A stretch of DNA of 63,946 nucleotides, the filler included, from Lenisia limosa (lineage: Eukaryota; Protista; Breviatea), in NCBI GenBank assembly GCA_001655205.1. It is 13 parts of 13 records of this genome, joined end to end, with 100 filler letters (N's around TTAATTAATTAA, not from the genome) between each part and the next. Parts side by side here need not be neighbours in the genome. Positions count along the whole stretch, not along the records: positions 1 to 8,542 come from LPNZ01000834.1; positions 8,643 to 15,612 come from LPNZ01002682.1; positions 15,713 to 25,976 come from LPNZ01011341.1; positions 26,077 to 28,495 come from LPNZ01011516.1; positions 28,596 to 41,250 come from LPNZ01002758.1; positions 41,351 to 42,672 come from LPNZ01004838.1; positions 42,773 to 44,624 come from LPNZ01005091.1; positions 44,725 to 46,517 come from LPNZ01005497.1; 5 more parts are not named here. One strand, 5' to 3'. Under the pieces are notes generated by a model. It worked only from the letters and a program-made list of their open reading frames with translations, had not been told where the DNA came from and did no database searches. Position 1 is the first letter of the stretch; the number at the start of each line of letters is the position of its first letter. Position numbers and translations under genes: made by a program. Shown one piece after another: positions 1,375 to 61,130 of this stretch.

Positions 1375-3051
1375 CTTCTTCTTTGGCTTAGGCCTTTGAG
1401 CATTCCTTCTTTCCTTCTTGATTGCTTTCTCGGCCTTCTTCCTCTCAAGGTCGACAACTGCAGCTTCTTCTTCTTCATTATCTTCGCTCTTTTCAACCTT
1501 TTCTTCTTCCTTCATTTCTTTCATTACTTCTTGTTTCTCTTCTTTCACTTCTTCCTTCTTCTCCTCCTTCTTTTCTGTGATCCATTCTTCTTGTGGTGGT
1601 CCTATAAAGTGAATTTAAAACTACTAAAATAGTAGAATTTTAACGACTCAATATGAGTCCAAAAAGAGTGTTCTAATTCGTATCAAATTCCACCTACTAT
1701 TTTTTTCTTCAATCTTCTGCCTTCCAATCCAGACGGGAATGGCGTTCTCCACGGCCTTCATGATACTGTCACTATCGACGTCATCGTACTCATCATCGGA
1801 CGAGCGTGCGGCCCGTTGTGAGCGTCCTGTGTATTCCGGCTTGAGAGTCTTCTTCGTTGTCCTACACGATGGGGCTGTTAGCGCAGGAAGAAGGGAAGAA
1901 GGGAAGAAGGGAAGAAGGGAAGAAGGGAAGAAGGGAAGAAGAGAAGAAGGAAAGAAGGGAAGAAGGAAGAAGAAAACTTGAGCAAAAAAAACCCGTCAAG
2001 AACACGTGATAAAGCGCTTTTTGACTGAGGTAATTTGTATATGGTCTCCCTATGTATATATTTATTTGTTTCCCAAGATTAATAATGTATATTATTTCTC
2101 TTTTATTATTTCTTTGCACCCCCCACCTAGCGTTGGTGAACTTGCCACGGCCCCTATAAGAAGGTCGGGACGGCTTTGGACGGTCCTCTGCTGGCTTCTT
2201 TTTCTTGCCTTTGTGCACCACCTGGATTGGAGTCAGGACTGTCAAGATCCGGTGTGAAGCAGGCTTCTTTATGTTTCAAAACAAGACAGGGAAAATACAG
2301 AAATTTATCAAGGATTGAGAAATTCAGTATTGTTTGAGGATTGAAAGATGATTATGAAAAGTTAGGACTATTATACATAAACACACATACACACAAATAG
2401 TAGCCCACCCCCACCTGCCACTCAGGGTCGGCCTCTTTTGGGTAAAACGGCTCGGCAAAAAGGTTCATACCCGGCGCGGGGTTGTACTTCACTGGCTCTG
2501 TAATGTCAAAAATGTGAAGATAATCCTTATCCGATGTCTTGCTCTTCTATTCTGAAGGTCCAAACAAAGACTGAAGTCCTTAATGAATCCTCGAAATGGT
2601 CAATATTTTACGGGTCTACTTCGGACCGAAGTGAAGCCCAAACAATATTGCGTTTTTCATTTTTTTTATCTGGAAAGCCAAAAGCCTTTGTTGAATATGT
2701 ATTAAAGGGGATAAAGCATGTGGAATGTTAAAGTGCGTTAAGGTTGAAGATCATGAGAGGACCAACCCGTGCTGCCCACCTGGGATGGGTTCTTCGGGCT
2801 TAGGGTCTGTGCAGTCGGAATGCTTGGCTATCTTCTTCTTACGGCGCTGGGGGGTAAAATGGGAAAATTTATGAAACAAAAAAAACCTAAATCAACTCTG
2901 TTGGCTGAACAATACACGAGGTTTCCCCCTCCACCCCATCTTATCAATACCAACCTTGAGGGCTACAGCTCCTAGAAGGTCGAGTTTCTCTGTCTCTATT
3001 TTGGCTAACCCGTCTTCCCTGACTTGCTCCAAGATGGCTTTCATGGATTTG
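1375..3051 (-). CDS. Multi-exon Lys/Glu-rich low-complexity protein (partial model)
   Basis: GT-AG bounded minus-strand exons: KSMKAILEQVREDGLAKIETEKLDLLGAVALK, RRKKKIAKHSDCTDPKPEEPIP, HKGKKKKPAEDRPKPSRPSYRGRGKFTNAR, TTKKTLKPEYTGRSQRAARSSDDEYDDV and KKEEKKEEVKEE...KERRNAQRPKPKKK. Ends not determined. Confidence 0.55.
2845..2920 (-). repeat. Intronic element family C, 3' half, forming the intron acceptor
   Basis: Minus strand reads cagccaacagagttgatttaggttttttttgtttcataaattttcccattttacccccAG directly into an exon. Confidence 0.8.
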
Positions 3052-3249
3052 CTGGGGGATGAGAGCGTAATGCCAGAAAGACGATTATGAAAATACTATT
3101 TAAATATTGACATTCATAATGATAGCGTAGTGGATCTGAAAAAAAAAAACGAATTACGGAAGAGGTGGGATGGGGGGGGGGGAGANNNNNNNNNNNNNNN
3201 NNNNNNNNNNNNNNNNNNNNNNNNNNNNNNNNNNNNNNNNNNNNNNNNN

Positions 3250-3824
3250 TTGGAAGTCATTTCATCAGACAAGACGAATGTGATTGGACGCCTTAAGGTA
3301 GTGGTCAAAGTCTGTAGACGGCTTAGTCAGGCACTATACCCATTCTGTGTTCTTCTCGAATATCGTTCTTTACCTAATTCCACCCTATAAAGGTGCTGCC
3401 CTGGATCAGACAGGCATTATTTTAATCACCGTCAGTTTGAATCAAGAATGATGATTGAGCGTGCTTTTGGTGCACTTCAAGGGCGCTTCATGCACCTTAC
3501 CACTCCCGTTCGCTATGAACTATCGATGACTGAAGCCTTTATTTTGCTCTGTTTTCTTCTCCACAACTTTGTCCTTCGAAGCGATGACCGATTTACCATT
3601 GCATCATATGATCCTGATGACTCAACTGATGTAAGTGTTATCCCCTTCCCCCTTTGTTATTTGATTTAGGGCAATGCTGGTGGTGACCACTTTGATGAAT
3701 CCAACAGTGGGAATTCCGTGATACCTTGTTTAATAGCTTGACGGAACACTAGGGTGATGCTCCTGACATCCAAGAGCGGTTGCTGTCGCTTACCGACCAT
3801 CTCTGCGGTTTGAGCTGTGACTGA
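3250..3824 (+). mobile_element. PIF/Harbinger (DDE_Tnp_4-like) transposase, C-terminal part, intron-containing, possibly degenerate
   Basis: Reads RHYFNHRQFESRMMIERAFGALQGRFMHL...FILLCFLLHNFVL, matching the Harbinger FN..HS..R..VERAFG.LK.RF..L and C..LHN motifs. Donor gat|gtaagt near 3630, then short downstream exons. Frame upstream of RHYFN is disrupted or spliced; 5' part lost at an N gap. Confidence 0.75.
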
Positions 3825-3919
3825 TTATTTAGTGTTACCATTGATGTATGGCTAATGCAATAGTCGTAATTTGATCTTTGATGATTTGTTAATGCCTGTC
3901 AGATACTTGTTGACCACTT

Positions 3920-5064: not shown

Positions 5065-5669
5065 GCCTTTGAAAGGTAATCCCACAGTTTGCGACTGAGT
5101 GTGACTTTCCCATTGAAACCGCCCAGTGAAGCAGTCAGGCGAAAGAGGACCCTGTTTTTTAGACAAGTGTATGAGGCTTCTCGTTCTGTCCTGTCAGCTC
5201 CTCTGATGGTTTGTGCTTTGTTGCAGCTTTGCTGTACATTTGTTTGATCCATTGGCAGCTTTGGATAACATTTTGATCCAAAAATCAAAGATCCAGATCC
5301 GATAATAAGGGTGTATTTAGAAGTAATCCCTTTTATGATCGATAAATAAAATTAAGTTGAGCAATATTTGTTATTTGAGAGTTATTCTCGCATGTACGAC
5401 ATGTCAGACGCTTTCAATCTAAAGCAAAACTCTGTGCCTTATACTTTCCAGAGTACTTTCAAAGTATCTTTTGTTCAAATAGGAATGTCTCTAATAGGCA
5501 CACTTCGATATTTTGACAAGAAAAAAGAAAACTTGAGAGCTAATAAACACAACACACCATCTCAGAAAACAAAACAAAAATATGAATAAACACGAAGATA
5601 GAAATCCATTTCTGACCAAAAAGAAGGGAGTATCTTCATATTTTCAAATAGTATTTTTGATATCCTCTA

Positions 5670-6435: not shown

Positions 6436-6660
6436 TAAGCAGAATTACAAGACCTATGCTAATATTAATGGGAGTACTGAATTGCATTCCTGCTCTGCAA
6501 TATTAATTATTCTTCATATGCTTTATATAATATGATAGTGTGAGGTATGTCATGTATGCTATATTATTTGTACAATAATATCATGTGATAGCAATATTCT
6601 GCAATACACCAAATATTATGTGGCATTAAAGTTCACAATTAACCCTCTCTCTCTCCCGAA

Positions 6661-7900: not shown

Positions 7901-8820
7901 TCCTCAGGTGAGACACGGAAACTATCTGAGACTACTTCCCACACCATTGCCACCTCCCCTTCTCGACTTCCTATATGTGCTTGCCTCTCCCCCTAATATT
8001 CCAATCCCCCCTTTTCTCGATTGATATCACATAGTAAACCATTTGGCCTGAATTAATGCTGGTGTTAGATGCTGACTTGCGCCATCCATACCATTGTGTA
8101 AATGCCCTCTCTTCTTCTTGTATAGTATTTGTGTTGTTTTTGTATATGTTTACATGTCTTTTTTTTTAGAGGTTAATCTGTTTTTCTTGAAAGACCTTTC
8201 TCAAATGTCACAAGCTCAGTAATTCACTTCATCACTTTGCCTTATTGGGATTTAACTACTCTGAAAGCGCTTCCAAACCTAACTCCTCTTACTATGGGGA
8301 AGACAATATGCATCACTGAATATCATAATCTCAAATATACGTTTTACACCTACCTCCACGCTTTTCGCAAATCATTACCCTCTCTTTATTGTGGCCACCA
8401 TCCCTCAACTGACAGTGTTGATTTGGAATTTTTTGTTTCATAATTTTGCAATTTTACTCATCAGAGTTGATTCTGGGGTTTTTTTTTTGTTTCATAATTT
8501 TCCATTTCATCGAAATGTCCTTTGCTTACCCCCCCCCCCCCCNNNNNNNNNNNNNNNNNNNNNNNNNNNNNNNNNNNNNNNNNNNNTTAATTAATTAANN
8601 NNNNNNNNNNNNNNNNNNNNNNNNNNNNNNNNNNNNNNNNNNAATGGGGTTTGTGGCCGCGTTTTCTTAAGGTTTGGGGGTTTGAGAGAGGAGGGTAGGG
8701 TAAAGTAAAGCTTTCGTCACCTTGACTGTTTTTGGATGATTCGTAGGACTCTATACAATGAATTTTATGAGGAAATTGAAATTAAATTGCCTGAAATGAC
8801 ATAATTACATTTCTTCCTAG

Positions 8821-11284
8821 GAATACTCACAAAAGCAGTGTGCAGTCTTCATTTATCGCTCGAATGGCACGAAACTTGGCGAGTTCAAGAAGGACGTTTC
8901 TTCCCTCGGGATCAGAGTAAGTGTCGTCGCCGTATAGTAGTATATTACATTTAATAAAACTGACTATATGAACGTATTCTTTTTATATTTTTCATTAACA
9001 TAATGATTGTTGAAATAATATTATACTATAATTCAATATCTATACACAATCTTGTTTTTTATTTCTCATTGCTAAATATTATTACTTGTAGTCAATGGCT
9101 TTCTCCCCCACGGGGCAACACCTCGCTATCGGACTGTTTTCCGGCACCGTATGGGGGTAATGGTTTTTTGGGCATTAGAGTTGATTTTGGGCTTTTTTTG
9201 AGTGTAATAAACAGGGCTTCACTTCGGTTCGAAAAAGAACACTAAAATATCGATAGTTTTCGAGGATGTATCGAGAAATTCAGTCTTTTTTTGAACGGAA
9301 GTGAAGCCCTAGTCATAAATTTTCAATTTTACCCCCCTCCCCCCTCTCCAGACTCTAGTTCTCAACCATCTAACCTGGGGGGTGTCGGCAAAGATGGCAC
9401 CAACCATCCTCAATACTCGCGCGGTACGTGGGGGATTATTTCGAGTAGGACTTTGGGAGTAGGACTTTTAGAGTGGGACTTTGACTTCTTTTTTTTTGAG
9501 TTTTTCTGAAGCGAAGATATGTTATGATCGGGCTTGTTCGTTATGTTGTCAAAATGTATGTTGGGAGGGAGGGACTTTTCTTTTGAGTTTATCTTCAGTA
9601 TATTTTGTTCGGATGCTGGAACTTTGAATGAATTGGGTGTTTTTCTAACTTATTATGTTATCTCAGGGGTGAGTTGATTCTCGGTTTTGTTTCATAATTT
9701 TCCATTTTTACTCCTCGCCTCACTCCACCATTCTGTTCAGATAATTCTACCTTTAACTCACCCTGCAGGTTTGCTATCAGGAAGTGTCATCTACATACGA
9801 ATCCAAATGTAAGGATATAGAGATAAAAAATATAAAAAGGTTGTATCTGACCGGAGTGGTCCACAGCATCACTCTTATGACAGTTATTGGATCATAGTAT
9901 AAAAGAAATAATATCATATGTTCATGAAAAATCTAGGGAAATAAATAAATACATAGGGATACTAGAACGATAAATCACCATGCTCTCCGGTGCCCCCCCC
10001 CCTTCCTAAGCATGACATGATCCCTCCAATATGCTTCAAAGACAAGCATCCTGACTTTTCAGATGCTGTCTCCACTAGTATGGAGCTTGAGGAATGCCAG
10101 GCGGTATGCGGGGGTTGTTTTGGTTTACACCAAACCATTCGTTCTTTTTCCGTTTTGCTTCTTGTTTTTTTATGTCTCACAACGCAGGTTGACCCGAAGA
10201 AGCCGAACCCAAAAAGAGGAGTTTCCCTCATTACGTGGTCGCCATGCAATCGCTACTTGTCCTGTAAAATCGGTCGGTTGTAACCCCCTCCGTAGACCCC
10301 CACGTCAATTCTGGGCTTCTTTTTTTTTTTTTCATAATTTTCTATTTTACTCCCCACATCATAACCCTCCTTGGGGTTTTTTTCTTTTAAAAATGTCTTT
10401 TTGGAGCTCTCTGATTCAAGCAAGCTTATCTAATCACAGCAATACAAAACCATTTCATTCCGTCTTTAACTTTTAAATTGGATTCTTTTTTTGTCTTTTC
10501 AAAAACGCTTATCATCCAGAGCACCACCCTCGAACAGTGTACGTATTTGACGTGCAAGCGTTTTCGTTGTGCTCGATCATACGTCAAGTTAACCCAGTCA
10601 CTGTTTGTGGGCGTTTGAGTGTCCTGAGATATACTGTTCTTGCTTCATTGAAATCGAGAGATATTAATGAGGATCATTGCATTTGCACAGATCAGTGAGC
10701 GTTACATTGTATTACGTACAGACAGTGACCGAATAAATCTTGACCTCTTTTACATAGCAAATTGGTCAGGTCTTATCCTTTAGGAATGTATTATTTGAAA
10801 CCTTTCTTTTTCGGTCAACTTTAATGTATCTGAAAACTTCCTTTTTCTTTTTCATAGAGAGATTACAACTGAATAGTAGAAAGTCAACTTCATCGTATTA
10901 CGGGTTATCTTGAAACCTTCCTTTATCAATCGAACTAACTCCCCAGTGTCTGGACTGGAATCCAAAAACCTCACTCCTGTGTATCTCCACTGACTCATGC
11001 AAGGTATAGCGGATTGCATTTTATCTCTTGTGTTCTACTGTCTCAATATCATGCTTGTCAACTCGCGAGCCACTCCTTATACGAAATCATCACCCCCATA
11101 AATCCATATTTTCACCCCTTCACAATCTTCTATTTGTTTTGCTGTGCTCAACCCTCTTGTGTTGTAAGCCAACAGAGTTGATTTGGGAGTTTCTTTTTAT
11201 GTTTCCTTTTTCCAATTTTTCTCGCCTCACAATCCAGATTTTCTTCTGGTCACCGGAGTCAGTTTCGGCCGTTTCAATTCCGAT
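8821..11284 (+). CDS. WRAP73: WD repeat protein WRAP73/WDR8 homolog (5' truncated at scaffold edge)
   Basis: Spliced exons give ...CAVFIYRSNGTKLGEFKKDVSSLGIR|SMAFSPTGQHLAIGLFSGT|..LNHLTW..|VCYQEV..|VDPKKPNPKRGVSLITWSPCNRYLSCKI|EHHPRTVYVFDVQAFSLCSIIRQVNPVT|CLDWNPKTSLLCISTDSCK|IFFWSPESVSAVSIP. This is colinear with WRAP73 motifs (SLGIKSVAWSP, LNHVTW, NPKIGI, FQWDP, LYLWSP). Confidence 0.85.
9212..9311. mobile_element. MITE family A copy nested in a family C element
   Basis: TIRs cagggcttcacttcggttcgaa / gaacggaagtgaagcccta; flanking 8-mers gtaataaa (9204-9211) and gtcataaa (9312-9319) match at 7/8. Confidence 0.9.
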
Positions 11285-46140: not shown

Positions 46141-46649
46141 TATATTATATGGCTAAAAAATGCAACGTGGGAGGAATCAATAATGTATAATGGGTCAAAT
46201 TGTGTTATACAACAAAAATAACAACAACAACAAAAATAACAACATTAACCCCCCATACTTCATAAAAGAAGGCAAGGGTGGCAACTCGGAACCAGCTGGG
46301 ACAACCAGGCCATCCTGGGAGGTTAATCTGAGTCAACCTTGCCCGGACTTATCCCGGTCACTGTGTATCCCCCCCTCTATTCACAAACATTACCCCCACA
46401 CCCTGGTTTGAATCGGGGTGGCAGAGCGCTTGGACGCCAGAATGATATTTGTCAGCTGAGTGGTGGTCTTATTGAGGCCTGTTTCTACCTGCGCGCTTTG
46501 CTGTTGGGGAGGGGGGGNNNNNNNNNNNNNNNNNNNNNNNNNNNNNNNNNNNNNNNNNNNNTTAATTAATTAANNNNNNNNNNNNNNNNNNNNNNNNNNN
46601 NNNNNNNNNNNNNNNNNTTACCCCCCCCCCCCCATCACTGTACGCTGGA

Positions 46650-49600
46650 GTGATGGGATGCGGTACTGCAGAAGCGATTGGCCTGGGCTTTGTTTTTTTG
46701 TTTTGTTTGATTTTAGGGTATTTTTGTTTCATCACTTTACAGTTTTACACACTCTCCTCTCACCCCTATGCTTTTTCTAAATTCTGACAACCTAGTCCGA
46801 GTCCACACACCCAACTCTACTGGTGATAGAAGGTAAACGCGCGTTAGGAACCTCTGCAGTTGCCAGCATTGTTCCAGATGTCATTAAGAACATTTGCTCC
46901 GATCAAATCTTCACTCCAATCGTGGGGGGGGGGGGGTNNNNNNNNNNNNNNNNNNNNNNNNNNNNNNNNNNNNNNNNNNNNNNNNNNNNNNNNNNNNNNN
47001 NNNNNNNNNNNNNNNNNNNNNNNNNNNNNNNCTCCAAGTGCATCCTTCGCGTTATTGCAGGTGTGGACAGGGGGGCGGCCCTTTTGTGCGCAATGGGTCA
47101 ATACCCCACGTTTTGGAACATTGATAACAGTATTCACACCTGCAGAAATCATCACCACTACCAAATTATCATCATCGTCACCGCCACCGCCACCACCATC
47201 GTCACAACCTTTAGGAAGTTTCTGTCATGTCATCTGCTTCTCGTCACCATAGCCTTGGCTTCCTAGGATGCATTATCCGCAACATATGCACACAGCTCAG
47301 GGTCATTGATAGTTCTTTGGTTGGCTTTTTTAACAGATTGAGGAATTTATTAATAATGTTAGCAAAAAATGTATTGAAGTTAAGGGGTTGAGGGGGATAA
47401 TGACTTAGTGATCAGATAACTGAACTTCTCAATAAATCTTGGTTATTTTTCGAAAGCTTGCCAATCTTTTGTGTACCAGTGCGAATCCATACACCTTACC
47501 TTTCAGGCGTTTTCGATTATTTGCCACATGGTTGAGAGAGTGGGCAGCAAAATCAAAGTTGGTGGAGGTTCTTTTTTTGTTTTTGTTGTTTTTGGTGTCT
47601 CGTTGTGCTTTTGATGTTTTCTTGCTGTCTCTTTCTGTTGAATATTTTCACTATCATCACCATCACCATTAACACCACTCGATCTTGACCCCTCAGACGC
47701 TTCTGCCGTCAATGCCTGACCTAAAGAACCTTCTACACAGTTTTGAGCACTTTGCCACCATTGATTCATCATGGGCTGCGTCCGTAGTAGGTGGAGAGTA
47801 CTACTTCACTCCAGTATGAAAATGATCGATAAATTATCGAAATATCTCGGTTTATCGAGAAAATGTACACATTTTCCGGCTCGGAGTGAAAACCTAGTGG
47901 ATAGTCAACAATTTTAACATGGTTTGCTTCTTATTTGCACCGCTATATAATTCTACCTCCCTCCCCAGATCACGGAGCTGATTGGAGTGACGAGTTCATC
48001 CGAGTCAACGGATGATGATGCTGAGTGGGTGGTTTTGAGAGCAATATTGTAAAACTTATCCAGTTGTACATAATTAAATTGTTTTTTTTACTTCATTGAG
48101 TTCATTTTATACTCTTTTTACAAGTCATGATATTAACTCTGTAGGCAAATCTACTTTGACTACGGAGGAAAAACTTCGTCAAATAAGGTAACTTTTTGAA
48201 ATGGCTCCATTAATAAGATGTATTACAACCTTGTCTTGTCTTGTTCTCGATCCAATAATAATATAATATTTAGCCAACAGAGTTTTTGCTCCATTATTAT
48301 TTTATTTTGTTTTTTGACTCATATATTGTCCATTTTGCCCCCCTCCCCTCATTATCGAAATTTGCTTTGTTTAACCTCTGAGATGGACCTTGTTGGTTTA
48401 GTTTTTTTATTTTCAATGTTTCCATTGTATTCCTTCCGACTTGGATTTCCTCTAGCCTTCCTCTACTTCCCTCAATGTTCCTTTCCTCTTGTAACTTCAA
48501 ATTGTAATAATATTCATAGTGACAAATAATAGTTTACTCGAATTATCTTGCCTGGACTAAGGAAGAGCCCCCCCCCCCTCAACTATTATCCACAGTTTTT
48601 CCTTCACCCCACCCCCAGGACACCTTCAACAATCTTGACCAATCAGTCGTTATCGGCGAATTATTGGCATCAATGGCCCAGGTTAGTTCAGGGTGCTACT
48701 GATATCCCAAGGCTTTCACTCCGGTCCGGGAAGGTCCGAGGAAATATCGATAGTTTTCGAGTTTTTTTCGAGACATGCAGTTTTTTTTTCTGACTGTTGA
48801 AGCCCTTGGGATATCTGTCAAAACAATATTGTTTTTACCTTCTGATAGTGTACCCCTGAACACGTCAAATTTTGGGAGAGTTGTTGGATTTCATAAATTG
48901 TCTATTTTTACCTCCTTAGAAGACTAATGGCCTTGTTTTGGTGGTGAAGGACCTGGATCATGCGCACACCGTGAGGGGGGGAGGGGGAGCGTTTAAACAG
49001 TAAATGATAAAATACAATGGTACTTTATGACGTAGTTTCCAATTGACGTTTCACTGCAAATTCACACAAAAACACTCTTACACACCTAGCTTTACATACA
49101 ATTTCACAAATACACATCATCGTGTTACATCATATATTACATTCAAACAAGCAATCTCACCAATCAGTCTCTTGCGCACTCCTTCGTGTCTTCCATAGCC
49201 TCCTACAACGCTGCGAGCCTCTTAGTTGTCGCCACCCATGCCAGCCTCAATAACAACGTAAGCAGGGGATATAAATGACCCCCCCCTAGGTTTGTATGTA
49301 CATGTACATGTGGTATATGTAGGGCTTCATTTCGGTTCGAAAAAGACCGGTAAAATATCGATTGTTTTCGAGGATATCGAGAAATTCAGTCTTTTTCGAA
49401 CCAAAGTGAAGCCCTAGGTATATGTACGATGTGGCACCAAGTCAATAGCAAAAATAGTTTTAAATGCAGCAGTGTGTTCAACAACTATTTTATTTCAGAA
49501 AAAGATGGTTAATTATTATAAACAACTAAATACAATAATTATGATGAAATATAAATAATACGGGAATCGAAAGTCACAACTATTAAGATTTTTTTTGAGT

Positions 49601-51850
49601 TGTGGAGCCTCTTTTCTAAGAATATAAGCTTTGTTAAAAAAAAAACAATCATCGAGCCGCCCCTCACGCATTGCAGGACATATTTGCTCTAGAAGCTAAG
49701 CATCGTGCCGAAACCAACATGCTGAGCCTCATCAGCACTATCCTCGAGCCCTTGAATGTTGACGTAAGCGTTGTCAAGACAAAAAAAATAATATTTTGCA
49801 TTTATTTCCTGAAATCATTATGTATTATGTGCCTTCATGCTGTTTTTTTATTTATGGAGGTTTCCTCTTTTGGTAGTTAGTTACCATATTAGGATGTGAA
49901 CATGTGGCTTTGCGATGTGTTCAAGTGTCCGATGTTGAGAGTAGCCAATTTGGGCCTGGCGGTGTGGGAAGCGTCACAGGGCATCCCGTCTGTGGTTCAT
50001 GCTTTCTTGACACATCTACAGGAGGTGGGGGAGGGGTAGCTCAAATTTTAAGCTAATAGATGCAGGATTTCAAAATTATTGATCACAAACCACATAAATT
50101 TCCTTTGACCCTCCCTCCCTGCAGAAAGGAGCTTTGGAATTCTCATCTGGCCGCATATGGACATGGGACATAGACGTTGTTAACGATCTTCGGATCAAGT
50201 GGTGCGCTGAAGGCACTGNNNNNNNNNNNNNNNNNNNNNNNNNNNNNNNNNNNNNNNNNNNNNNNNNNNNNNNNNNNNNNNNNNNNNNNNNNNNNNNNNN
50301 NNNNNNAAGGGGAATAGCTAATTTGGCGACTGGACATGATTTTGGACCTTGAGCATATAGCTACGCTTATTTGGAGTAGGTAGGGTAGGGTAGAGGCAAA
50401 ACCCAGTGTATACAGTGACCGGGATAAGTCTTGACCGGTTTGCTGTGTGTGTGATTTCCCAAGGAAAATGGTCAAGACTTATCCCGGTCCCTGTATAAAA
50501 TGTATATAAGGAGGTGTAGGGGGGTGGATGATTAGGAGTTGTCATGTCACCCTCTATTGGGACCCTATTAAACCTTCTGGAACCTGGTGTGATGGGATGC
50601 GGTGCTGCAATAAGTGACTGGCCTGGGCTTTGTTTGTTTTGTTATCAACCCTTGTGTGATGGCAGCCAACATAGTTGATTTGGGCTTTTTTTGTTTCATA
50701 AAATTTCCATCTTTACTCCCCCCACCCCTCAGATGACGCGTACGATCAGCAATCTTGACCCAGTGTCTATCTCCATTCTGGCGGCGTTGAGCGGGGCTGG
50801 CGTGGCTCTCCCAATGAAGACTTTGATGTACGTCTGCGGCGCGACTTTTGAGCAGGTTCAAACTGCTCTCTTTGTGGGCGGGGGATGATGTTCTTCAATA
50901 GCTCTAAGAATCTACATGTATATGTGGATAGTATTGACGAGTGACTTGTGATGTGATATGTAGTTAAAACAAAAACACAATTTAGCTGCAAAAGTGTGGT
51001 GAACATCGCTTTTATCGAGATATGGCACAAGAAATATTGAACAACCTCGGGTGTCAATGTAAATGACACCCATAAACAAAGAACTATCATATCCAAAAAA
51101 AATGGTGATACATTTCACCTTACCACAGTATCACACAGAAGGAAGATTATTTTTTGTGCAATGAAGAAGAATAAAAGTAGAAAAATTGTATTTTTATGAA
51201 CTGAATTCAATACGACAAGTTCGTATTTTGCAGCTACTTCCGGTTTCCAAAAAAATGATGCGTCACAATCCCTGTTAATTTACTGATGTTTAGAGTCTGC
51301 GAGTACAAGGCCTGATTATTACTGAGGGACACATGCCTGACAAGATCCTCGATAGTGCCGTAATAGGGGGGGTATTAAGAGGGTAAGAAAAAAGACTGAA
51401 TTTCTAGAAAAATCCTCGAAAGCTATCAATATTTTACTGGATTATTTCAAACCGAAGTGAAGCCCGAGGTATAACTAGGATTATCCCAGATTTTGGGTCA
51501 AAATTCCAATCATAATCGCCAGGTTTTTGCGATCACGGGGAGTGGGGGGTCCTGGCTGACGAATCCTAACTTGTATTTGTTGTACAGATTTTGGCAATTT
51601 TTGAAACAAATAAAACGGTATTATGTCATCGTGTTTGGAGACCTGCTTTAACGCGCCTAGTTTTCTTCAGTACCAATTTCGCGGGCAACATCATGTGTCA
51701 GCAGTTGCTCAAAGTAGGCATCCTGTTTATTTTTTGTTTTGGGAGGGAATTGGAGAGCGAAAACATTTCTGCTGTCAAACACCTTATGGGCTCTTTTGTT
51801 TCAGAGAGCCATTTCTATCTTTTCGCCAATATTCTTCAGCGAAATTTCTT
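46650..51850 (+). CDS. STAND-class predicted ATPase (COG3899/AAA_16 plus helical domains), internal fragment
   Basis: Exons KTNGLVLVVKDLDHAHT | ..LLVVATHASLNNN | ..STILEPLNVD|DVNMWLCDVFKC..LAVWEASQGIPSVVHAFLTHLQE|KGALEFSSGRIWTWDIDVVN | ..TISNLDPVSISILAALS..TLMYVCG | GLII | YQFRGQHH are colinear with the LVIFLDDLQWAD / LLIGAYRDNE / L.PL..DVN.LI / TQGNPFF / W.WD / KL...Q.L..AA / YKFLHD pattern of this family. Confidence 0.75.
49320..49416. mobile_element. MITE family A copy with perfect 8-bp TSD
   Basis: ggtatatg at both 49312-49319 and 49417-49424; TIRs tagggcttcatttcggttcgaaaaagac / gtctttttcgaaccaaagtgaagcccta. Confidence 0.95.
50413..50493. mobile_element. MITE family B (Tc1/mariner-type)
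   Basis: TA-cagtgaccgggataagtcttgacc ... ggtcaagacttatcccggtccctg-TA. Further copies at 52435-52512, 54607-54684 and 58800-58875; half copy near 46346-46364. Confidence 0.9.
50589..50732 (+). repeat. Full-length family C element equal to a whole 144-nt intron
   Basis: GTgatgggatgcggtgctgcaataagtgactggcctgggctttgtttgttttgtt...cagccaacatagttgatttgggcttttttgtttcataaaatttccatctttactcccccacccctcAG. Removing it joins ..LLEPG|MTRTISNLDP.. in frame. Similar copies at 46650-46795 (+) and 60291-60429 (-). Confidence 0.85.
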
Positions 51851-52947
51851 TCGATTTACTCCCCCAGTACTAACTTCATGCCAATGTTNNNNNNNNNNNN
51901 NNNNNNNNNNNNNNNNNNNNNNNNNNNNNNNNTTAATTAATTAANNNNNNNNNNNNNNNNNNNNNNNNNNNNNNNNNNNNNNNNNNNNAAAACAATATTG
52001 CTTCCTCTCGACTTGTTTCATCCTTCTTTACTCCAGCACACCTTCCGAGCCTCTTTATCCCCGCCTTTTTGGCTTTCTTTTCCTTTTCCTTTACCTTTAC
52101 CTTACCTTCCACCCCCACTCTTTATGTTGTGTTTGTTTTTTGTTTTTATAAATTCCCCATTTTCCATAAATGTTCCAATTTTANNNNNNNNNNNNNNNNN
52201 NNNNNNNNNNNNNNNNNNNNNNNNNNNNNNNNNNNNNNNNNNNNNNNNNNNNNNNNNNNNNNNNNNNNNNNNNNNNNNNNNNNNNNNNNNNNNNNNNNNN
52301 NNNNNNNNNNNNNNNNNNNNNNNNNNNNNNNNNNNNNNNNNNNNNNNNNNNNNNCCCCCCAGCAAGGTTGGGGAGGGGGTCCTAAACTCTCTGCTGACTC
52401 CTTAACTCCATAACCTTCATTTCCCTTTTGTATACAGTGACCAGGATAAGTTTTGACCGATTTTCCTTGGGAAATTAGTAAAAAAATTGGTCAAGACTTA
52501 TCCCGGTCGCTGTACATGTGATACATATACAGGACAGTATGTTACGTAGAAGGGTATTTTTACTTTTTGGGCTTCACTTCGGTGTGGTAAAATATTAATA
52601 GTCTTCGAAGATTCATCGAGAAATTCTGTTTTTTTTTAAACCAAAGTGAAACCCCAGTTACTATGGTTCAGACGGGTAGGTGTGAGGCTTCACGTCGGTT
52701 CAGAATTAGACTGAACTTTTCTATAAATTTCGATATTTTACTGGACTTTTTCTTATTGGAGACAAGGAAGGGGGCAGTTTTACGTCTGGCAGTGTAATTT
52801 ATTCTCAATTCTATACTTCTTAAACTTGTCATATTATTTCGAACCTCACCTTCCNNNNNNNNNNNNNNNNNNNNNNNNNNNNNNNNNNNNNNNNNNNNNN
52901 NNNNNNNNNNNNNNNNNNNNNNNNNNNNNNNNNNNNNNNNNNNNNNG

Positions 52948-53562: not shown

Positions 53563-55851
53563 GAGTCGAGTAAATCAAGGACATGTCGGTGGTCTCTGAG
53601 CGCGTCCCTGAGTGCAGACTCGAAATCCACAGAACCTTCCCCTGCTTTGTTAGAGCATGAAAACCACAACAGTCAAACAAAATCATTGATCAAAAACAAA
53701 ATTCCCATAATTGCAAACAGTACCGCAATACTATTATTAGGGGTAGTAATTGCACAGCGTCCCAGTAATCACCAACATAATTCCCAGATAAACTTCCAGA
53801 GTTCATACCAAACAGGGGAGACAGCCAATGTAGGCGAATGTCACGCATAATAGCGAGGCGCAGACGCGAAACAATCCCAAGGCTGGCCTTGTTTCGACGA
53901 TTCAGTCTAAATGCGTTAATTTCGTAGATAATTCATAAAACAATATTATAATTAGGTATAACTAATATCACGTATGAAGGTAGCAAGATTGAAAGGTGGG
54001 TGGGTTATCATTCACCTATAAGATTATCGGGTGATGGTGATGAACAACATGATTATAAGGTGATGATGGCGAAGAACATGATTATTAGTAAGGAGGGCTT
54101 CACTTCGGTTCAAAAATACTCGGGGAAAATATTGAGAAACATTCAGTCTTTTTTCAAACCGAAGTGAAGCCCTAATTATGAGTAACAGTCAACCGCCGGA
54201 TCTCTATGATCCAGTTTCAATTGAGACTTCACTGCAAAAAAAAAAAACAACAATCATATATAAATGTCTCGTATTGGGTGGTTGGTTGAGGACTTTTCCC
54301 ATAAGATGGCAAATTTATGAAACAAAACAACCACACCAACCGATGAAGCGTCCGTTGTGATTCGTAGTTGTCCTTCTTGCCAACAGTGAGGAATTGAACG
54401 TAGTCAATTCGGAGCTCGTGGCAGAACGGCCGTCTTTTAATGGCTTCCTGGGGGGGGGGGGGNNNNNNNNNNNNNNNNNNNNNNNNNNNNNNNNNNNNNN
54501 NNNNNNNNNNNNNNNNNTGGAAAATATGGATATTAAGTAAAACGAAGGAAATGGGGTAGGAGGATATCAATAGAGGTTTTGAGTCAAAATATCACTAGTT
54601 GGTTTACAGTGACCGCGATAAGTTTTGACCGATTTGCCATTTGATTTCCAATGGAAAATCGGTCAAGACATATCCCGATCACTGCACATATGATATGATA
54701 CAGTATAATACTATATCGATTAATGATATGGTAATTTATACTGGTCAACATACCAAAATAACAACTTGTGGATATGAGTAATTAATTTGGTTCAAAATAT
54801 CGAGTGTTTGGTCAATATACCGAGTATTTGGCGGCGATATTTGACTGCATTGTAGGGGACGAGTCGATAAACCACACACGAAGTCCAACAAGGATGTCCT
54901 GGAATGGTCAAAAATGGATGGATGGTGATGACAATGGTGGTTGACGACGATGATGGTGATGACGATGATGATGATGTTGTTTTTGATGATGATAATGGTG
55001 GTGGTGATGACGATGATAGCTTTGATGATGATGGTGCTGGTTTTGATGATGGTGGTTATCATCATCAAAACCAACACCATCATCATCATCGTCATCACCA
55101 TCATCGTCGTCACCACCACCATTTTCATCACCATCCAATCATGACCATTATCATCACCATCCAATATATGATATCCTGTGCAGCCCCAGCATACGGAATT
55201 AAAGAAGGACTTTTTGACGAAATCTGCAGGGGAAACTGAAGGGTCCGCAGCCCGGGCTCTGAGGGTATTCTCCCGACTCCGTACCACTGTGAACAGCAAA
55301 ACGGAAGATCCAACCTGAATCTTGAGATCGAATCTGTTTTGACAGCAAGGAAATCTAATATAAAATGGAATCTGTCGAAATTTCCTCCGTTCCTCCCCAT
55401 CCCCTACCAAAGCCACAGGCATGAGCACAACGAGTGAGCCGAAGTCGTTGACTGCATAGCAGTAGAGCAAAAGAAGGCCCATTGAGGCTGGTAAACCGTA
55501 CACCCCAGCCGCGAAATGCTGGGGAGGGGGGTGCAATTGGACAATTTTTGGAATTAAAAAAAAAAAAAAAGTTCAGAAATTAAGGATCAAAATTGAGAAA
55601 ATGAAATTTCCAGAAAGTTCCAGAATTTTCCAAATAAAGAAATACAGTAATAATAAAGAAAAAACAATGCAATTATTGAAATTCCAAAAGATTTAATGGA
55701 AATTTCGTTACGCAGAGTCTAAATTTTAAATAAAAAAATTGGCCTACGTTCAGAAGTGGCGTATAATAAGGCAAGTGGATCGCCACCCGAACAACGAGGG
55801 ACAAACACGCGAGAGTCACGAAGACAACAAATGCAACCTGGAGTGTTAAGC
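53563..55851 (-). CDS. Multi-pass membrane protein with possible RGS-like C-terminal region (fragment)
   Basis: Hydrophobic exons VAFVVFVTLACLSLVVRVAIHLPYY and HFAAGVYGLPASMGLLLLYCYAVNDFGSLVVLMPVAL, followed by DILVGLRVWFIDSSPTMQSNI, RRPFCHELRIDYVQFL and IVSRLRLAIMRDIRLHWLSPLF, loosely RGS-like. Confidence 0.45.
54093..54174. mobile_element. MITE family A copy (internally shortened)
   Basis: gagggcttcacttcggttcaaaaa ... tttttcaaaccgaagtgaagcccta. Other partial or diverged copies near 2565, 11383, 12700, 15390, 28822, 44422, 47810, 48709, 51388, 52567, 58010, 59883, 61460 and 63150. Confidence 0.85.
54920..55160. repeat. Intronic (GAT)n/(CAT)n low-complexity tract
   Basis: Imperfect trinucleotide runs, first gat-rich then cat-rich; similar tracts near 41540, 47150, 59005 and 61250. 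Confidence 0.85.
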
Positions 55852-56529
55852 TTGGTAATTTGTCAAATGGTATCCCTATATTTTTGTTTTTAAACAAAAA
55901 GTGTTAATAAGGGGAGTGAGTGTCACTATCACAACGCTATTTGTCTATGGTATCCCAATGTATCTTTGTTTCCCTAAATGTCTAATAAAATTAGTGTTAA
56001 TACGGGGGTGGAAATGAATGATTAGGTAGAACACAGGGGTTGAAAACAACAAAACAAACAAATCCCAGGCCAGTCNNNNNNNNNNNNNNNNNNNNNNNNN
56101 NNNNNNNNNNNNNNNNNNNTTAATTAATTAANNNNNNNNNNNNNNNNNNNNNNNNNNNNNNNNNNNNNNNNNNNNTCAGATGTAGGTGCTTCAGCGCACC
56201 GCATCTCATCACTACAGCGTAGGGGGGGAGAGATTATGGACAACTTATCAAACAAAATAAAAACCCCCCAAGGGATAATGGTCAATTTATGAAACCTGGT
56301 GAAATAGAGACGCACCTTTTCCTTGTGATATTTAGCACCCAATTTTGACCCCCCCCCCCGTTCTTAATTTAATTAACTAAAACNNNNNNNNNNNNNNNNN
56401 NNNNNNNNNNNNNNNNNNNNNNNNNNNNNNNNNNNNNNNNNNNNNNNNNNNNNNNNNNNNNNNNNNNNNNNNNNNNNNNNNNNAAACCCCAAAAAAACCC
56501 TCAAAACCCACTCCCCCGAAATCCCTCAA

Positions 56530-59500
56530 ACTTTAAGGTCTTCGTCCAAGTAAGCTGAATACTAAAAAAAAGTTAGACAGGAAGAGCCCTGAGAAATAAT
56601 GATTTTGTGATTAAACAGAAAAAATCCGTTGAAAAGAGTTTCACAGTTCATCAAAAATAGCTGACGAAGGTTGGACGAGAAAATATGAGAGAGAGCCAAA
56701 CCTTATTTCTAGTATTTTGTAATTAATGTTATGAAGAAAGAAATTGATAAAATTTGAAAGTGTCTGAAATAATGCTATCGTTCTTCCCAAGCAAACCTTC
56801 CCGTCCATAACCTCATCAGCAAGGTCCCAGAACGACAGACCTTCATTTTCAACAACAGCGATGAGTTGGAAGAGGGCAGATTCTGAGGGGAAGAAGTAAA
56901 AAAAAACAAAAACAACAAGGGTGGTCATCCAATATATCATATGATATATACATGTATATACTATTAGTTATCCCATGGGGGGGGGGGGTNNNNNNNNNNN
57001 NNNNNNNNNNNNNNNNNNNNNNNNNNNNNNNNNNNNNNNNNNNNNNNNNNNNNNNNNNNNNNNNNNNNNNNNNNNNNNNNNNNNNNNNNNNNNNNNNGCA
57101 TATATCCAAGATTTTAATTCTGATGTCACCCGATTAAGTTTTAAAACTATCAGAAATTCCTGATATTACTGATTTCCCATCGGTTATGGACAATTATATC
57201 GAAAATACTAAGAAACAAGTTTGAATATATGTATACTATGATAAAATATGTTTGAATGGAAAAACAAAATTTGTAAGGGGTATTTGTTGACCCCAAATTT
57301 TGATAATAAATATAATACTATATATCTCCATTGGGTCATAGGGTCTGAGGCCTGAAATCACGCTTTTAATCACGCTTTTTCATGGGGTAATGGGGTCAGG
57401 CCAAAAAAACTACTGATGTATTGAGTGACCGCCCTAACAGATCTAATTATTTTATGAGTCATATCACTTTTATTAACATTTTATGATGTCATATCACTTA
57501 TATGGCACCTCATATCCCTCGTGTGATAATTGACCGACAAGTCCCAATGATACTCTGACTCGTGATAAACCCTCGTGTTATCTTCGTTCATCATTTCGAC
57601 TCGAAAGTATATCACCCTTTTAGTGAAAGATTGTCTGAAATAATACACACACATAATATAAACCACGAATTGTAGTCTCTCAAGAATGCCAGTCATTGCA
57701 TATTGCCACACTCTCTTGTCTCAAATTCAGCCAGCTTGCTGATCAAATCATCATATACCCCACGTCTCAATGAAGATACGGTCGTTTCATGGTCATACTC
57801 CTCTTCCTCCGATTGTGGCGAGTCTGAGAATGGTGACAATATACTAATTATATCATAAAATAATAATACTAATAATAAAAAATCAGGAAAAATATTTAAA
57901 TTATGGTGATAATAATGTCAAATTATTGAGAATGGAAAAAGTTCGCCGACACTATTCCCATTTCTCAAATTCTGGAGACTGATGATAATGGTTATTTGCA
58001 ATATGCAAGTAGGGCTTCACTTCGGTTCAAAAAAAGACGGAATTTCTCGATAAATCCTCGAAAAATATCGATATTCCCATCTTTCATTTTACTTGACCCC
58101 CCCCCCCCCCNNNNNNNNNNNNNNNNNNNNNNNNNNNNNNNNNNNNNTCGGCCATGGAGGGGCCAGACCCTGTGGGGGGGGGGGTAAAATTGGAAAATTT
58201 CTGAAACAAAAAAGCCCAAAACAACTCTGTTGGCTGACAACAGACAAGGGTTGATAACAACAAAACACACAAAAAATAACAAGATATTTATAAAAAAGTC
58301 GAAAAAAAAGTCTCGCACAATCCCTCCAAGATGTAACAAGGAGTTATATTAGAAAAAAGTCTCGCACAATCCTCACCAATATACAAGAAAAAAAGACCTT
58401 GCAATCCCCCCCACTATTTGACAAGGAAGTTATACCCGAAAGACGTGAGGACGGCAGAATGTGCGGGAAGGCTGCCATTGCAGGAAGGTGGTCGTCTTCT
58501 TCTGTTTCTAAAACTGCAGGGGAGTGAAACGAATCTTGATGTCATATCATATCAATAAACCCTCGATAAAAACTCGATAAAACCTCGATAATATAACAAA
58601 TACAATCTCACACAGACCTTCGAGTGACTCATTGTACTTCTGCACGACGTTTAAGAGGCGTAAACGCGTGTTATTGTGCTGGCGTATGAGACAGAACCTG
58701 AGGGAGTTATTCATATTTATAGATTATAACCAAGGGAGGGGAAAACAAAGAAAATTTCGATGAAGAAACTGGTGTAAAGGTACTAAGGGGGATTGTATAC
58801 AGTGACCGTGATAAGTCTTGACCAATTTAGCGTGATATCTCAGGTAAAGTCGGTCAAGACTTATCCCGGTCACTGCCCCCCCCCCCTTATTACACACCGC
58901 CCACTTGACGGGAGAGCTTTCCGCATCGAGTGCAAAAAGAGCCTGGATAATTCGGTCCTGGTCCCTCCTGACAACCGCGTTTTCAAGCTGGCCAAAGAGC
59001 TAGGGGTTGATGATGATGATGATGATGGTGACGGTGATGTTGATGTTGATGATTGTGATGATGGTAATGGTGTATGAAGAAGAAGAAGAAGAAGATGATG
59101 ATGGTGATGATTATGATAACACCCCCCCCCCCCAAACAGTTTCCGTATACGACTCAATAATTTTGTCAACTTCTGAGAAAATCTAAAAGGTAAATTCCCA
59201 AATATAAACACTGTTTTTGAGGAAACTAATTGCCAGAATGTAAACTGAAAATAGGTTCGTTCCCATTACAGTGTATATCCCATCATATTTCTAAAAAAGT
59301 ATTGTTTACTAATTAACAAAATTCGAAAGAAGCATATTTGAAATGTTCCTATCTCAATATGTCACACAGGACTTCACTTCAGAAAGATAGTAATTGTCCG
59401 TACCATTTTTTGAGACTTGTTGATCAATTATTACTGTGGTATCATGTCGAAACATTGAAAAATGTTCATATGTGTGAAAACGACCCAAAATTGATATGCT

Positions 59501-61130
59501 TACCCATATCCACTAGTGATATGATCATCTGACCGACTTTTAAGTCGAAATGATGAACGAAGATAACACGAGGGTTCATCCCGAGTGTANNNNNNNNNNG
59601 AGTACAGCGTGAAAAATGTTTACACTTGGGAAAATGACCCGAAAAGTGATATGATACCTCATATCCAATAATAGCTCTCAAAATAAATAAAAAAACATAT
59701 CAATTCCCACCGTTTGAAAGAAGGCAGCCTTGAGGCTTTTTTCCAAGGCTATTCTCTTCCGATAAATGCGAATTACTCCCTCGGTGTTTCCCTAATCAAG
59801 TAACATAGTGAAATGTTACTACTACACGTTAGTGAAATGATGACCCCTAGTGAAATAATATACATTAGTGAAAACCCAAATATAGGGCTTCACTTCGGTT
59901 CGAAAAAAGACAAAATTTCTCGATTGATATTTTAAAGATCCTTTTCGGACCGCAGTTGGCTTAGCAAAAACAACAGGAGAGAAGCCACGAACACTACCAA
60001 CAACCCCATCATCATCATCATCAATATCACTAACAACCCCATAATCATCATCATCAATATCACTAACAACCCCATCATCATCATCATCATTATCACTAAC
60101 AACCCCATAATCATCATCATCAATATCACTAACAACCCCATCGTCATCATCATCAATATCACCAACAACCCCATCATCATCATCATCAATATCACCAACA
60201 ACCCCAACCTCGTCAGCAAAAGCAGAGGCTGCAGAAGGTAAACCAAGCACATTCCGGAAGCGGTCCAACATTCGATACAGTCGTCTGTGTCTGAGGGGAA
60301 GAGAGTAAAATTGGAAAATTTATGATGCAAAAACAAAGAGCAAAAATCAACACTGTTGGCCACAAACACACAAGGGTTAAGAACAACAAAACAAAAAAGC
60401 CCAGTTGCATCTGTAGCACTGCATCCCACCCCTGCAGCGTATGGATCATTGTCACCCGTGTGAACTATTATTTCCACACACTGATATGATCGCCCCCCAG
60501 TGTTACACCCCTCGCCACGGACCGTTCAGCCCGGTTATCGCGTTCAATGTCGTCAAGCCATATTTTCCGGGCTAAATCAAAGGAACCTGGGGGGGGGGGG
60601 GGGNNNNNNNNNNNNNNNNNNNNNNNNNNNNNNNNNNNNNNNNNNNNNNNNNNNNNNNNNNNNNNNNNNNNNNNNNNNNNNNNNNNNNNNNNNNNNCAAA
60701 CAAAAAAAAGGCAGTTCTTACCCCCCTCTCCCCACCCTTAATATCCAAGCCAAGAGTGTCGAAAGCATCCTCAAAATCCTGGTTTAGTATCTGATCCTCG
60801 TGCATTCGAGTAGCCAATTCTACATTATTAAAAAGAATACTACACCCGATAAATGGCCATATCTATGCCCACTATCTAAGAAAATAAACAATAGAAATTT
60901 TAAAAACAATATAAATAATCAGAAAAATAATAATATCAACTTCATCAAAAGAAGAAGAAGAAAGCAACAACCGCAACATAAGAACAACAAGAACATGACA
61001 CCCTCCCACGAATAAGAGTATCGCGACAAGTAATAAACTCGTCTATGTGATCATTAACAAGAAGTTGCCTTTCATCGAGGTTGTCTTCAAGCCCCTAAAT
61101 TTAAGAAACAGCTGGGACATTCACCTCATC
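56530..61130 (-). CDS. Large hypothetical multi-exon gene (fragment)
   Basis: GT-AG exons GLEDNLDERQLLVNDHIDEFITC, ATRMHEDQILNQDFEDAFDTLGLDIK, GSFDLARKIWLDDIERDNRAE, DTDDCIECWTASGMCLVYLLQPLL, GNTEGVIRIYRKRIALEKSLKAAFLSN, LFGQLENAVVRRDQDRIIQALFALDAE, HNNTRLRLLNVVQKYNESLE and SALFQLIAVVENEGLSFWDLADEVMDGK. Confidence 0.45.
60001..60205. repeat. Intronic minisatellite, 33 bp unit
   Basis: caaccccatcatcatcatcatcaatatcactaa, about 6 copies. Confidence 0.9.

Follow-up and report, generated by a model that had tools for sequence, protein, structure and literature searches.

Repeated intronic elements of the kind considered here have their closest described counterparts in the IEs of Micromonas, which occur in the sense orientation only, leave remnants in canonical introns and form merged copies (PMC3879977), and for which, in the case of IE-A and IE-B, reverse splicing into RNA or R-loop DNA has been proposed (PMC3879977, PMC4540971), according to the sections of these papers drawn on here. 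In the corresponding sections of the literature, whether reverse splicing moves introners that lack terminal inverted repeats (TIRs) and TSDs is treated as an open question (PMC4540971, PMC10996645). The introner surveys of 2022 and 2025 both used annotated genomes, by those parts of their accounts cited here; in the portion of the 2022 data file covered here, Lenisia occurs only in the genome-list sheet, with 0 in the last numeric column, and the 14 supplementary files belonging to the 2025 survey do not contain the name. Elements remodelling old introns can escape end-to-end screens.

We analysed a stretch of 63,946 nt, referred to in its entirety as the window, from Lenisia limosa, an anaerobic breviate protist that we presume to be of aquatic habit; counts are based on the 59,471 non-N bases of the window and on two sets of reads aligned to it. 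A single copy (50589-50732) used as seed returned 12 window matches at E<0.002, and a profile trained on 17 copies, including 16 of the 19 strong loci (E≤0.01), detected 24 loci at E≤0.5 and 28 matches at E≤5; as background at E≤0.01, the reversed window yields 0 and a set of 10 shuffles 1. The repeat is non-coding and ~155 nt long (profile length 157), and its 24 loci are spread over ~11 genes, bearing out the earlier observation of a recurrent element shared by introns of unrelated genes. All 18 positions previously listed hold a piece, that at 52140 by pairwise alignment only and not by profile; loci at 640, 8405, 8459, 48242, 48889, 55552 and 56223, all sense, are additional. Summed DNA read depth leads to an estimate of ~5,000-10,000 related copies genome-wide, of the order of 10^4, with similar depth in the 5' half (~141,000 at 50615) and the 3' half (114,000-127,000 at 50659-50672). 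Exact motifs of the element had no match in JGI metagenomes or viral contigs, and its frames gave no credible Pfam match among the ORFs scanned, the credible matches among 238 window ORFs being phospholipase B, EML/beta-propeller and DDE_Tnp_4 only. Outside the PCNA gene, the copies are as follows (profile positions in brackets).

606..640, minus strand: piece (92-126), 15 nt past a predicted donor
2847..2924, minus strand: copy (73-151) that makes up the final 78 nt of predicted intron 2847-2954, after a 30-nt G-rich lead; possibly a decayed whole-intron copy
8405..8542, plus strand: two tandem 3'-half copies (8405, 8459), C-run end at the scaffold end
9171..9351, plus strand: copy split by a MITE (9213-9310), ending at acceptor 9351 of intron 9149-9351
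9668..9719, plus strand: 3'-half copy in intron 9424-9768, 49 nt from the acceptor
10309..10356, plus strand: weak mid-intron 3' piece, with 163 nt between it and the acceptor
11132..11237, plus strand: copy (55-152) at the acceptor in a WD40-gene intron, flanked by an 8-nt direct repeat
26656..26729, minus strand: 5'-intact copy in a repeat-gene intron, starting ~178 nt into it
27119..27170, minus strand: 3' piece, acceptor of repeat-gene intron 27119-27469
43433..43527, minus strand: copy (59-148) in the EML-type WD40 gene, acceptor ~48 nt further
43819..43905, minus strand: 5'-intact copy (2-99), cut by a gap
46640..46761, plus strand: 5'-intact copy, GTACGC start directly after a C-run, acceptor ~34 nt past the copy end
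48242..48348, plus strand: copy (66-152) in mid-intron, next predicted acceptor far off
48889..48919, plus strand: 3' piece, acceptor 48919; the following exon is covered by an RNA contig that bridges to 49168
50580..50732, plus strand: near full-length copy ending at predicted acceptor 50732
52114..52183, plus strand: degenerate 3' piece outside the count of 24, aligned pairwise to a strong copy only
54304..54331, minus strand: weak 3' piece, 9 nt past a predicted donor
55519..55552, minus strand: weak 3' piece at a predicted acceptor
56026..56075, minus strand: middle piece (39-88) beside a scaffold end
56184..56262, minus strand: head-to-tail pair, a weak 3' end with C-run (56224-56262), then a 5' end (56184-56223)
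58170..58273, minus strand: copy (52-153) ending at a predicted acceptor
60291..60443, minus strand: full-length copy, acceptor of predicted intron 60291-60522, starting 79 nt inside the intron

The copy at 26656..26729 continues into a gap, at the far end of which stand a C-run and AG (26532); gaps in the assembly coincide with C/G runs. For the genes at 50733 and 46796, no protein of L. limosa itself was recovered, and Atlas offered weak leads only (among them WRAP73, rank 19, with a score of 0.84). In the WD40 gene, which we take to be WRAP73-like, three introns seem to match human WRAP73 intron positions, and two of the three bear the element.

All 24 profile loci are intronic and sense to their host gene, and the window holds no antisense or intergenic copy, so that the orientation first noticed by eye extends to the enlarged set. 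A MITE family of the same window provides an internal control: it has no strand bias (10:7, against 24:0 for the element; Fisher p=0.0009) and lies outside genes in 5 of 22 cases, against 0 of 24 (p=0.019). Restricting the element to strong matches with well-supported hosts leaves 15:0 (p=0.008). Host strand was taken from RNA for PCNA and likewise for the 48970/49168 junction, from the Pfam EML match for the EML-type gene (minus), and from a WD40 match with an open 9-exon chain for the WD40 gene at 8643-11537 (plus), which the first gene-model run had left unoriented (5.1 vs 6.0); elsewhere it comes from an element-masked gene model, with weak support for 640, 8405 and 8459 and moderate support for 2924. 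Among 77 curated introns, 63 of them hand or model predictions without RNA, 11 carry sense and none antisense matches (local-shuffle mean 0.55), and 66 are free of the element; two candidate introns with wrong ends had been dropped ahead of this count, and because gap-containing introns were left out, element-bearing introns are probably under-counted. Plain C-run targeting in DNA would yield antisense copies, given that sense-strand G-runs are at least as common as C-runs in the 66 element-free introns (42:42 at a length of at least 4, 25:13 at 5 or more); it was rejected, there being no antisense copies.

The element is anchored at its 3' end, which reads TTTAC, C-run, YAG: with the two whole-intron candidates left out, six of nine copies end ≤12 nt from an acceptor, against 0.83 expected (P ~1e-5), in keeping with the splice signals that had been attributed to it. 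Element-free introns show a YTNAY peak that places the A at -9/-10 (68 introns, 33 matches), and it is here that the element has TTTAC; from this positional agreement, TTTAC is the putative branch point. The preliminary description had assigned that role to GTTGATT, which lies ~45-55 nt from the AG and was rejected. Several copies, such as those at 10309 and 48242, are far from any acceptor.

Whether a copy can constitute an entire intron is answered by the PCNA gene.

21269..23058, plus strand: PCNA, the host gene, interrupted by 8 introns; once spliced, its product is identical to P0001, which identifies the host as L. limosa
22665..22730, plus strand: 3'-half copy in PCNA intron 7 (22618-22749), ending 19 nt before the acceptor
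22848..22970, plus strand: PCNA intron 8, an element copy throughout (30-149), without most of the 5' segment

RNA run X2 contains the joint 22847/22971, so that this intron, proposed earlier to be wholly element, is in one case seen to be removed precisely from GT to AG. The profile match runs from +1 to -3 of the intron, leaving ~5 nt for an older one; because the copy is without most of its 5' segment, an old donor followed by deletion could also explain it. In intron 7, a second branch-like motif follows the copy. None of the eight PCNA intron positions, element-bearing or not, matches those of the 5 intron-bearing loci among 80 (the other 75 showed no intron), and the comparison is non-discriminating. 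The same whole-intron status had been claimed for 50589-50732, and there it was not supported: the acceptors of the only stop-free exons able to end at 50588 score -12.9 and -15.6, when none of 66 curated acceptors scores under -4.1, and these exons require phase 1 whereas the donors visible upstream have phase 2, with a gap at 50219-50306 that could hide an exon; RNA coverage is thin throughout 46618-51888 and absent from this intron.

The 5' end of the element, placed earlier at GTGATGGG, lies ~10 nt further upstream, at a common YACGCTG. A match at both intron ends (within 10 intronic bases) occurs in one of 11 element-bearing curated introns, PCNA intron 8; in the remaining 10 the element starts 21-299 nt from the donor. 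As an introner family needs at least two such introns, the window is perhaps too small for this comparison. All six copies with an intact 5' end start within older introns and none at a visible donor, the three with a donor in view starting ~80-180 nt into the intron. GTACGC opens one of these six and one read contig, the others beginning CT, AT, AC, AC and GA, and the donor may on this account not be part of the element. An acceptor-like tract lies directly upstream of three of the six (null fractions 0.002, 0.003 and 0.048; combined p=2e-4), one being another copy's own tail and one also readable as a hairpin arm; the other three flanks are not clearly acceptor-like (0.14, 0.24, 0.80). In one read contig, CAG immediately precedes the TACG start. 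Insertion exactly at the host branch point was rejected, as the YTNAC pattern precedes the element body in none of the six. Two of eight same-position paralogous introns of one repeat gene carry the element, from which we argue that some intron positions would be older than the element.

The termini and fold bear on the class of element. The reported absence of TIRs and TSDs was upheld: no TIR was found in the four copies tested, and a flanking repeat >5 nt was present in one of nine (8 nt, at 11132), so that a MITE was rejected. Nine folds gave no stable structure (z +1.13 to -1.95, no better than shuffles), and a conserved 5' hairpin was rejected, a 9-bp hairpin being present at the 5' terminus of the 46640 copy alone among six (non-significant over the six; combined p 0.09-0.47). 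No copy had an Rfam match at E≤1 or any tRNA similarity; a snoRNA origin was rejected for want of Rfam support, despite a C-box-like TGATGA in two copies, and a SINE or snoRNA-derived retroposon fits neither this nor the C-rich end and sense-only placement. By eye, no consistent CTRR or TC terminus of a Helitron was seen on either strand. The family does share with IEs and ILEs a length <200 nt, non-coding sequence, sense-only placement in transcription units and the lack of TIRs and TSDs, and departs from ILEs in having no stable conserved RNA fold. Set against the introner definition in the relevant part of PMC9860276, unrelated introns share sequence and precise splicing is seen in one case, while similarity to both intron ends is seen in 1 of 11. 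The term introner-like thus fits the element's behaviour, by virtue of its sense-only intronic location, 3' splice signals and one whole-intron copy; what does not stand of an introner family is that copies generally span introns, for most do not. The preliminary description's alternative, an element retained where it supplies branch point, pyrimidine tract and AG, fits at least as well as mass intron creation.

Taken together, this is a repeat family with a sense-only genic location, 3' anchoring and one RNA-confirmed whole-intron copy. We regard the chances as evenly balanced that it is a mobile spliceosomal intron without TIR or TSD, of the Micromonas-IE/fungal-ILE type and likely transcript-coupled, which mainly lands at 3' splice sites already present and takes over their function. 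Its ancestral unit would have extended from a GTACGC-type donor to TTTTAC, C-run and YAG, with the branch A at the genome's -9 spacing, and would insert by a transcript-coupled route, most likely reverse splicing. A copy landing in an exon would produce a new intron, for which PCNA intron 8 is a candidate; one landing at an existing intron's 3' end, or close to it, would produce a merged intron using the outer donor with the element's branch point and acceptor, in which the inner donor would decay (GT is kept in one of six such window copies). The both-ends result, the six 5'-intact copies and the paralogous introns set the family apart from a textbook introner, and it likely settles for the most part where older introns end, instead of solely creating new introns. 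It is tempting, and no more than tentative, to go further and see a mobile intron that, via the spliceosome or coupled transposition, homes to 3' splice sites already in place and has rewritten branch point and acceptor in more than one-tenth of the introns in this breviate, new introns arising as a by-product.

It is possible, if rather doubtful, that a non-autonomous DNA-level element targets the pyrimidine-CAG of existing acceptors (e.g. through a short shared core, with CAG duplicated) and never creates intron positions, the whole-intron copies reflecting later deletion of the old intron body. Such targeting would accommodate the 5'-intact copies within older introns, the two of eight paralogous introns, the CAG before TACG and the apparent agreement of three WD40-gene introns with human WRAP73 positions, and because the motif is strand-specific a sense bias could arise without RNA; but PCNA intron 8 leaves little room for an older intron, introns 2847-2954, 9149-9351 and 9424-9768 look largely or collinearly element-derived, eight of nine copies tested lack a TSD, and neither recombinase nor autonomous partner was found. 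An ordinary non-autonomous transposon (SINE- or Helitron-like), inserting broadly, with selection purging antisense and exonic copies and keeping acceptor-strengthening ones, is unlikely: MITEs in the same window survive in both orientations and outside genes, 24:0 would demand near-complete purging, and the similar read depth of the two halves argues against steady 5' truncation, even though many window copies lack the 5' part. The high copy number, a few mid-intron and tandem copies, the single 8-nt repeat and the single hairpin would suit it; the lack of tRNA and Rfam similarity and the hairpin's non-significance would not. That the element created every element-bearing intron, with upstream sequence added by later insertion or drift, we consider very unlikely. 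PCNA intron 8 agrees with such an origin, intron 9424-9768 begins GTACGTGG, a close match to the element 5' end, and holds collinear pieces (a weak one at 9506-9553), and MITEs do insert into copies (9213-9310, and joints in reads at 50612); all six 5'-intact copies nevertheless lie inside introns away from any visible donor, and element-free paralogous introns share the same repeat position. Common splicing signals or gene conversion among intron ends, without mobility, seem scarcely credible and by the alignments are already largely refuted, for although the last 45 nt have the T/C-rich make-up of any acceptor and composition could account for the weakest matches, the 5' and middle blocks are of high complexity and common to unrelated genes over 100-150 nt at ~65-85% identity, and 66 of 77 curated introns have no element.

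A family of thousands of copies, strictly sense in orientation, with a strong preference for existing acceptors and an unbiased MITE control in the same window, makes sharp predictions for a public genome and its RNA, and breviates would join the lineages with introner-like elements. An intron that homes to 3' splice sites would, if true, constitute a selfish element of a new kind, and no natural test set for intron transposition by the spliceosome would be larger. In Alu exonisation in primates, an intronic repeat likewise supplies pyrimidine tract and AG; Alu, however, supplies its acceptor in antisense, occurs everywhere in both orientations and creates exons, whereas in Lenisia the element is found in sense only and takes the place of the end that the intron had. 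Like MITE-derived introners, as described in the relevant parts of PMC9860276 and PMC12130899, the family combines high copy number, at least one supplied splice site and a free-living microbial eukaryote as host; unlike them, it has no TIR, no consistent TSD and no opposite-orientation copies, and 10 of 11 curated introns fail to match at both ends. With fungal ILEs, by the corresponding parts of PMC4457414 and PMC9860276, it shares the lack of TIR or TSD, GT-AG borders and decay into ordinary-looking introns, yet a genome has tens to ~500 of those, with a fold that is conserved (PMC3879977, in part), against an estimated thousands and no stable fold here. The Micromonas IEs, in the sections drawn on, likewise are repeated spliceosomal introns that are short and non-coding; within transcribed regions they occur in sense only, with nested or merged copies. 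They are, though, mostly whole introns at new positions, intra-intron remnants being a minority (of 463 IE-A-like repeats, 32 inside conserved introns), whereas the majority in Lenisia are partial or merged copies, ~65-85% alike, at the 3' end of older introns.

The repeat noticed in the preliminary description is real: searching the window, which consists of 13 short scaffolds connected by N-linkers, with a single copy, 50589-50732, returned 12 matches at E<0.002, and a profile of 157 positions built from 17 copies matched 28 places at E<=5; tightening the cutoff to E<=0.5 left 24 loci, and to E<=0.01, 19. At E<=0.01 the profile found 0 matches in the reversed window and 1 in ten shuffles; because most strong loci had been in its training set, the single-copy search gives cleaner evidence. 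Among nine of the best copies, likeness is mostly 65-85%. Two public read runs from one study were used: X2 is poly(A) RNA, and X1, whose kind is unrecorded, behaves as genomic DNA. At 80% likeness, X1 depth was ~24 over single-copy DNA, 114,000-222,000 at element positions and 401,000 at one T-rich place. Summed X1 contig depth gives ~5,000-9,000 copies, good to an order of magnitude only, since such a sum does not measure copy number; window density extrapolated to 49 Mb, the listed assembly size of the breviate Lenisia limosa, gives 16,000-20,000 copies, decayed pieces included.

The 5' boundary of the element is a YACGCTG block, ~10 nt upstream of the start first proposed. At the 3' end, TTTTAC is followed by a C-run and then YAG. 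GTACGC stands at the element start in copy 46640 and in one X1 contig; in the other five window copies with a preserved 5' end, CT, AT, AC, AC or GA replaces GT. Across 68 element-free introns, the A of YTNAY peaks at -9/-10 (23 and 10 matches). TTTAC has this same spacing in copies 22970 and 2847 and is therefore the likely branch point; GTTGATT, earlier thought to fit that role, lies 45-55 nt away and was rejected. As first reported, terminal repeats are not evident: no terminal inverted repeat was found in 4 copies examined, and a flanking direct repeat >5 nt in only 1 of 9. Rfam and tRNA searches of the element gave no match, and RNA folding gave no fold surpassing shuffles; copy 46640 has a 9-bp hairpin at its 5' end, which is not general among copies. 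Splice signals across the window are unusual: most donors read GTGGG, GTTGG, GTATG or GTAGG and lead into G-runs, acceptors are C-rich with a branch-like A fixed at -9/-10, and many assembly gaps fall on intronic G and C runs. Spurious Rfam miRNA matches fell on CAT/GAT-rich arrays, which together with one 9-nt tandem array occupy 33320-33525, 54930-55150 and 59990-60210.

A Tourist/PIF-Harbinger-like MITE family of ~95 nt with terminal inverted repeats starting GGGC (22 window copies; read depth up to 242,000, ~10^4 copies) served as the orientation control. A second family of ~80 nt, with TA then CAGTG-type inverted repeats, is Tc1/mariner-like.

MITE copies in the window
836-928, GGGC family
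9213-9310, GGGC family
45344-45436, GGGC family
49321-49415, GGGC family
54094-54173, GGGC family (and 17 more)
50412-50492, TA/CAGTG family
52435-52513, TA/CAGTG family
54606-54684, TA/CAGTG family
58799-58875, TA/CAGTG family

The open reading frame 3391-3666 (+) matches DDE_Tnp_4 (E=4e-6) and also Plant_tran; this Harbinger-type transposase fragment is a possible partner of the GGGC MITEs. Several X1 contigs link MITE ends to element position 50612, which suggests that MITEs inserted more than once at a single site within the element.

All 24 element loci lie inside genes and in sense to the host, bearing out the orientation first claimed, while the control family is mixed: 5 copies lie outside genes, and of the 17 genic ones 10 share the strand of the gene and 7 oppose it (Fisher test: strand, p=0.0009; genic location, p=0.019). 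Host strand came from RNA for PCNA and the 48970/49168 junction, from Pfam for the EML gene, from a WD40 match with an open nine-exon GT-AG chain for 8821-11286, and elsewhere from a crude gene model with elements masked (107 vs 21, 30 vs 4, 27 vs 3, 31 vs 4 and 44 vs 23), its support being weak for 1-3185 (40 vs 33) and 7700-8542. Restricted to the 15 well-supported copies, the strand bias against the control persists (p=0.008). An attraction to C-runs does not by itself account for it, since intronic sense strands carry G-runs as often as C-runs.

The curated gap-free set comprises 77 introns (14 from RNA, 8 by hand, 55 predicted); at >=2 bits the profile detects a sense copy in 11 of them and an antisense copy in none.

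Where the 3' ends of the 24 loci fall
10 loci: directly in the acceptor
4 loci: 19-50 nt before the acceptor
2 loci: mid-intron
1 locus: followed by a tandem copy
3 loci: entering gaps
4 loci: without a 3' end

Among these acceptors, RNA proves only those at 22970 and 22749. With the two whole-intron candidates left out, an acceptor lies within 12 nt of the element end in 6 of 9 cases, against 0.83 expected. At its 5' side the element does not coincide with donors: each of the six 5'-intact copies is located within an older intron, three directly 3' of an acceptor-like tract, one such tract being the tail of another copy and one readable also as a hairpin arm. The protein from spliced PCNA (21269-23058) is identical to P0001, whose EukProt accession names Lenisia limosa, and the gene's 8 introns, within 792 coding bases, are among 14 RNA-confirmed GT-AG introns in 20320-24844. 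In PCNA intron 8 (22848-22970) the element extends from +1 to -3, as had been proposed. The same claim for 50589-50732 fails on acceptor score and phase, and RNA cover is absent there. The surrounding exons, 49677-50873 (+), are split by spliceosomal introns and resemble a bacterial-type AAA ATPase/kinase module; a weak Atlas lead points to a cyanobacterial cluster. Introns 2847-2954, 9149-9351 and 9424-9768 could each be a whole-intron copy that has decayed, and a short old lead plus insertion fits also. Below the profile threshold, the RNA-confirmed phospholipase B intron 20444-20823 (-) opens like the element 5' block, and candidate donor 50199 (50199-50218, +) has 12 exact bases in common with copy 56223; both could be copies at donors in an advanced state of decay.

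The gene at 26077-28495 (-), nucleoporin-like with AAPAAGGLFG units and a tandemly duplicated exon plus phase-1 intron, offers a natural set of paralogous introns. All eight lie behind the same repeat-unit codon, and five have a 5' sequence in common; the element is present in just two, in each case toward the acceptor. Most simply, these positions would predate the element. The WD40 gene is WRAP73-like (Atlas lead at rank 19), and three of its introns, two with the element, seem to sit where human WRAP73 has introns. None of the 8 PCNA intron positions matches introns of 5 intron-bearing loci (80 fetched), element-free introns being likewise unmatched.

Because the element has the marks of Micromonas introner elements (IEs) and fungal introner-like elements (ILEs), we favor, with evenly divided confidence, a mobile intron that mostly lands at old 3' splice sites or close to them. 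Every step of its mobility we infer. A transcript-coupled step would carry the element to old 3' splice sites or their vicinity and occasionally into exons; splicing would then use the outer donor and the element's acceptor, leaving the inner donor to decay. For IEs and ILEs, the proposed mechanism is reverse splicing into RNA or R-loop DNA (PMC3879977, PMC4540971, PMC10996645 and PMC9860276). The main rival, a DNA-level element aimed at a pyrimidine-CAG motif and never making new intron positions, is rather unlikely. Random insertion followed by selection fits less well and is distinctly improbable, a pure introner is more improbable still, and non-mobile origins are the least credible.

Our searches on introners, Lenisia introns, breviate repeats and merged or acceptor-replacing elements, within openly accessible papers, found no earlier report of the element. 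In the data seen from the 2022 introner survey, which filtered out unannotated genomes, Lenisia appears once, in a genome list; it is absent from the main text and 14 supplementary files of the 2025 survey. In 10 of 11 curated introns the element fails the both-ends membership test, and it lacks a stable fold; for these reasons we class it apart from IEs and ILEs. Nevertheless, it behaves as they do: strictly sense and genic, it carries all of a 3' splice signal and possibly starts with GT, but has neither TIR nor TSD.
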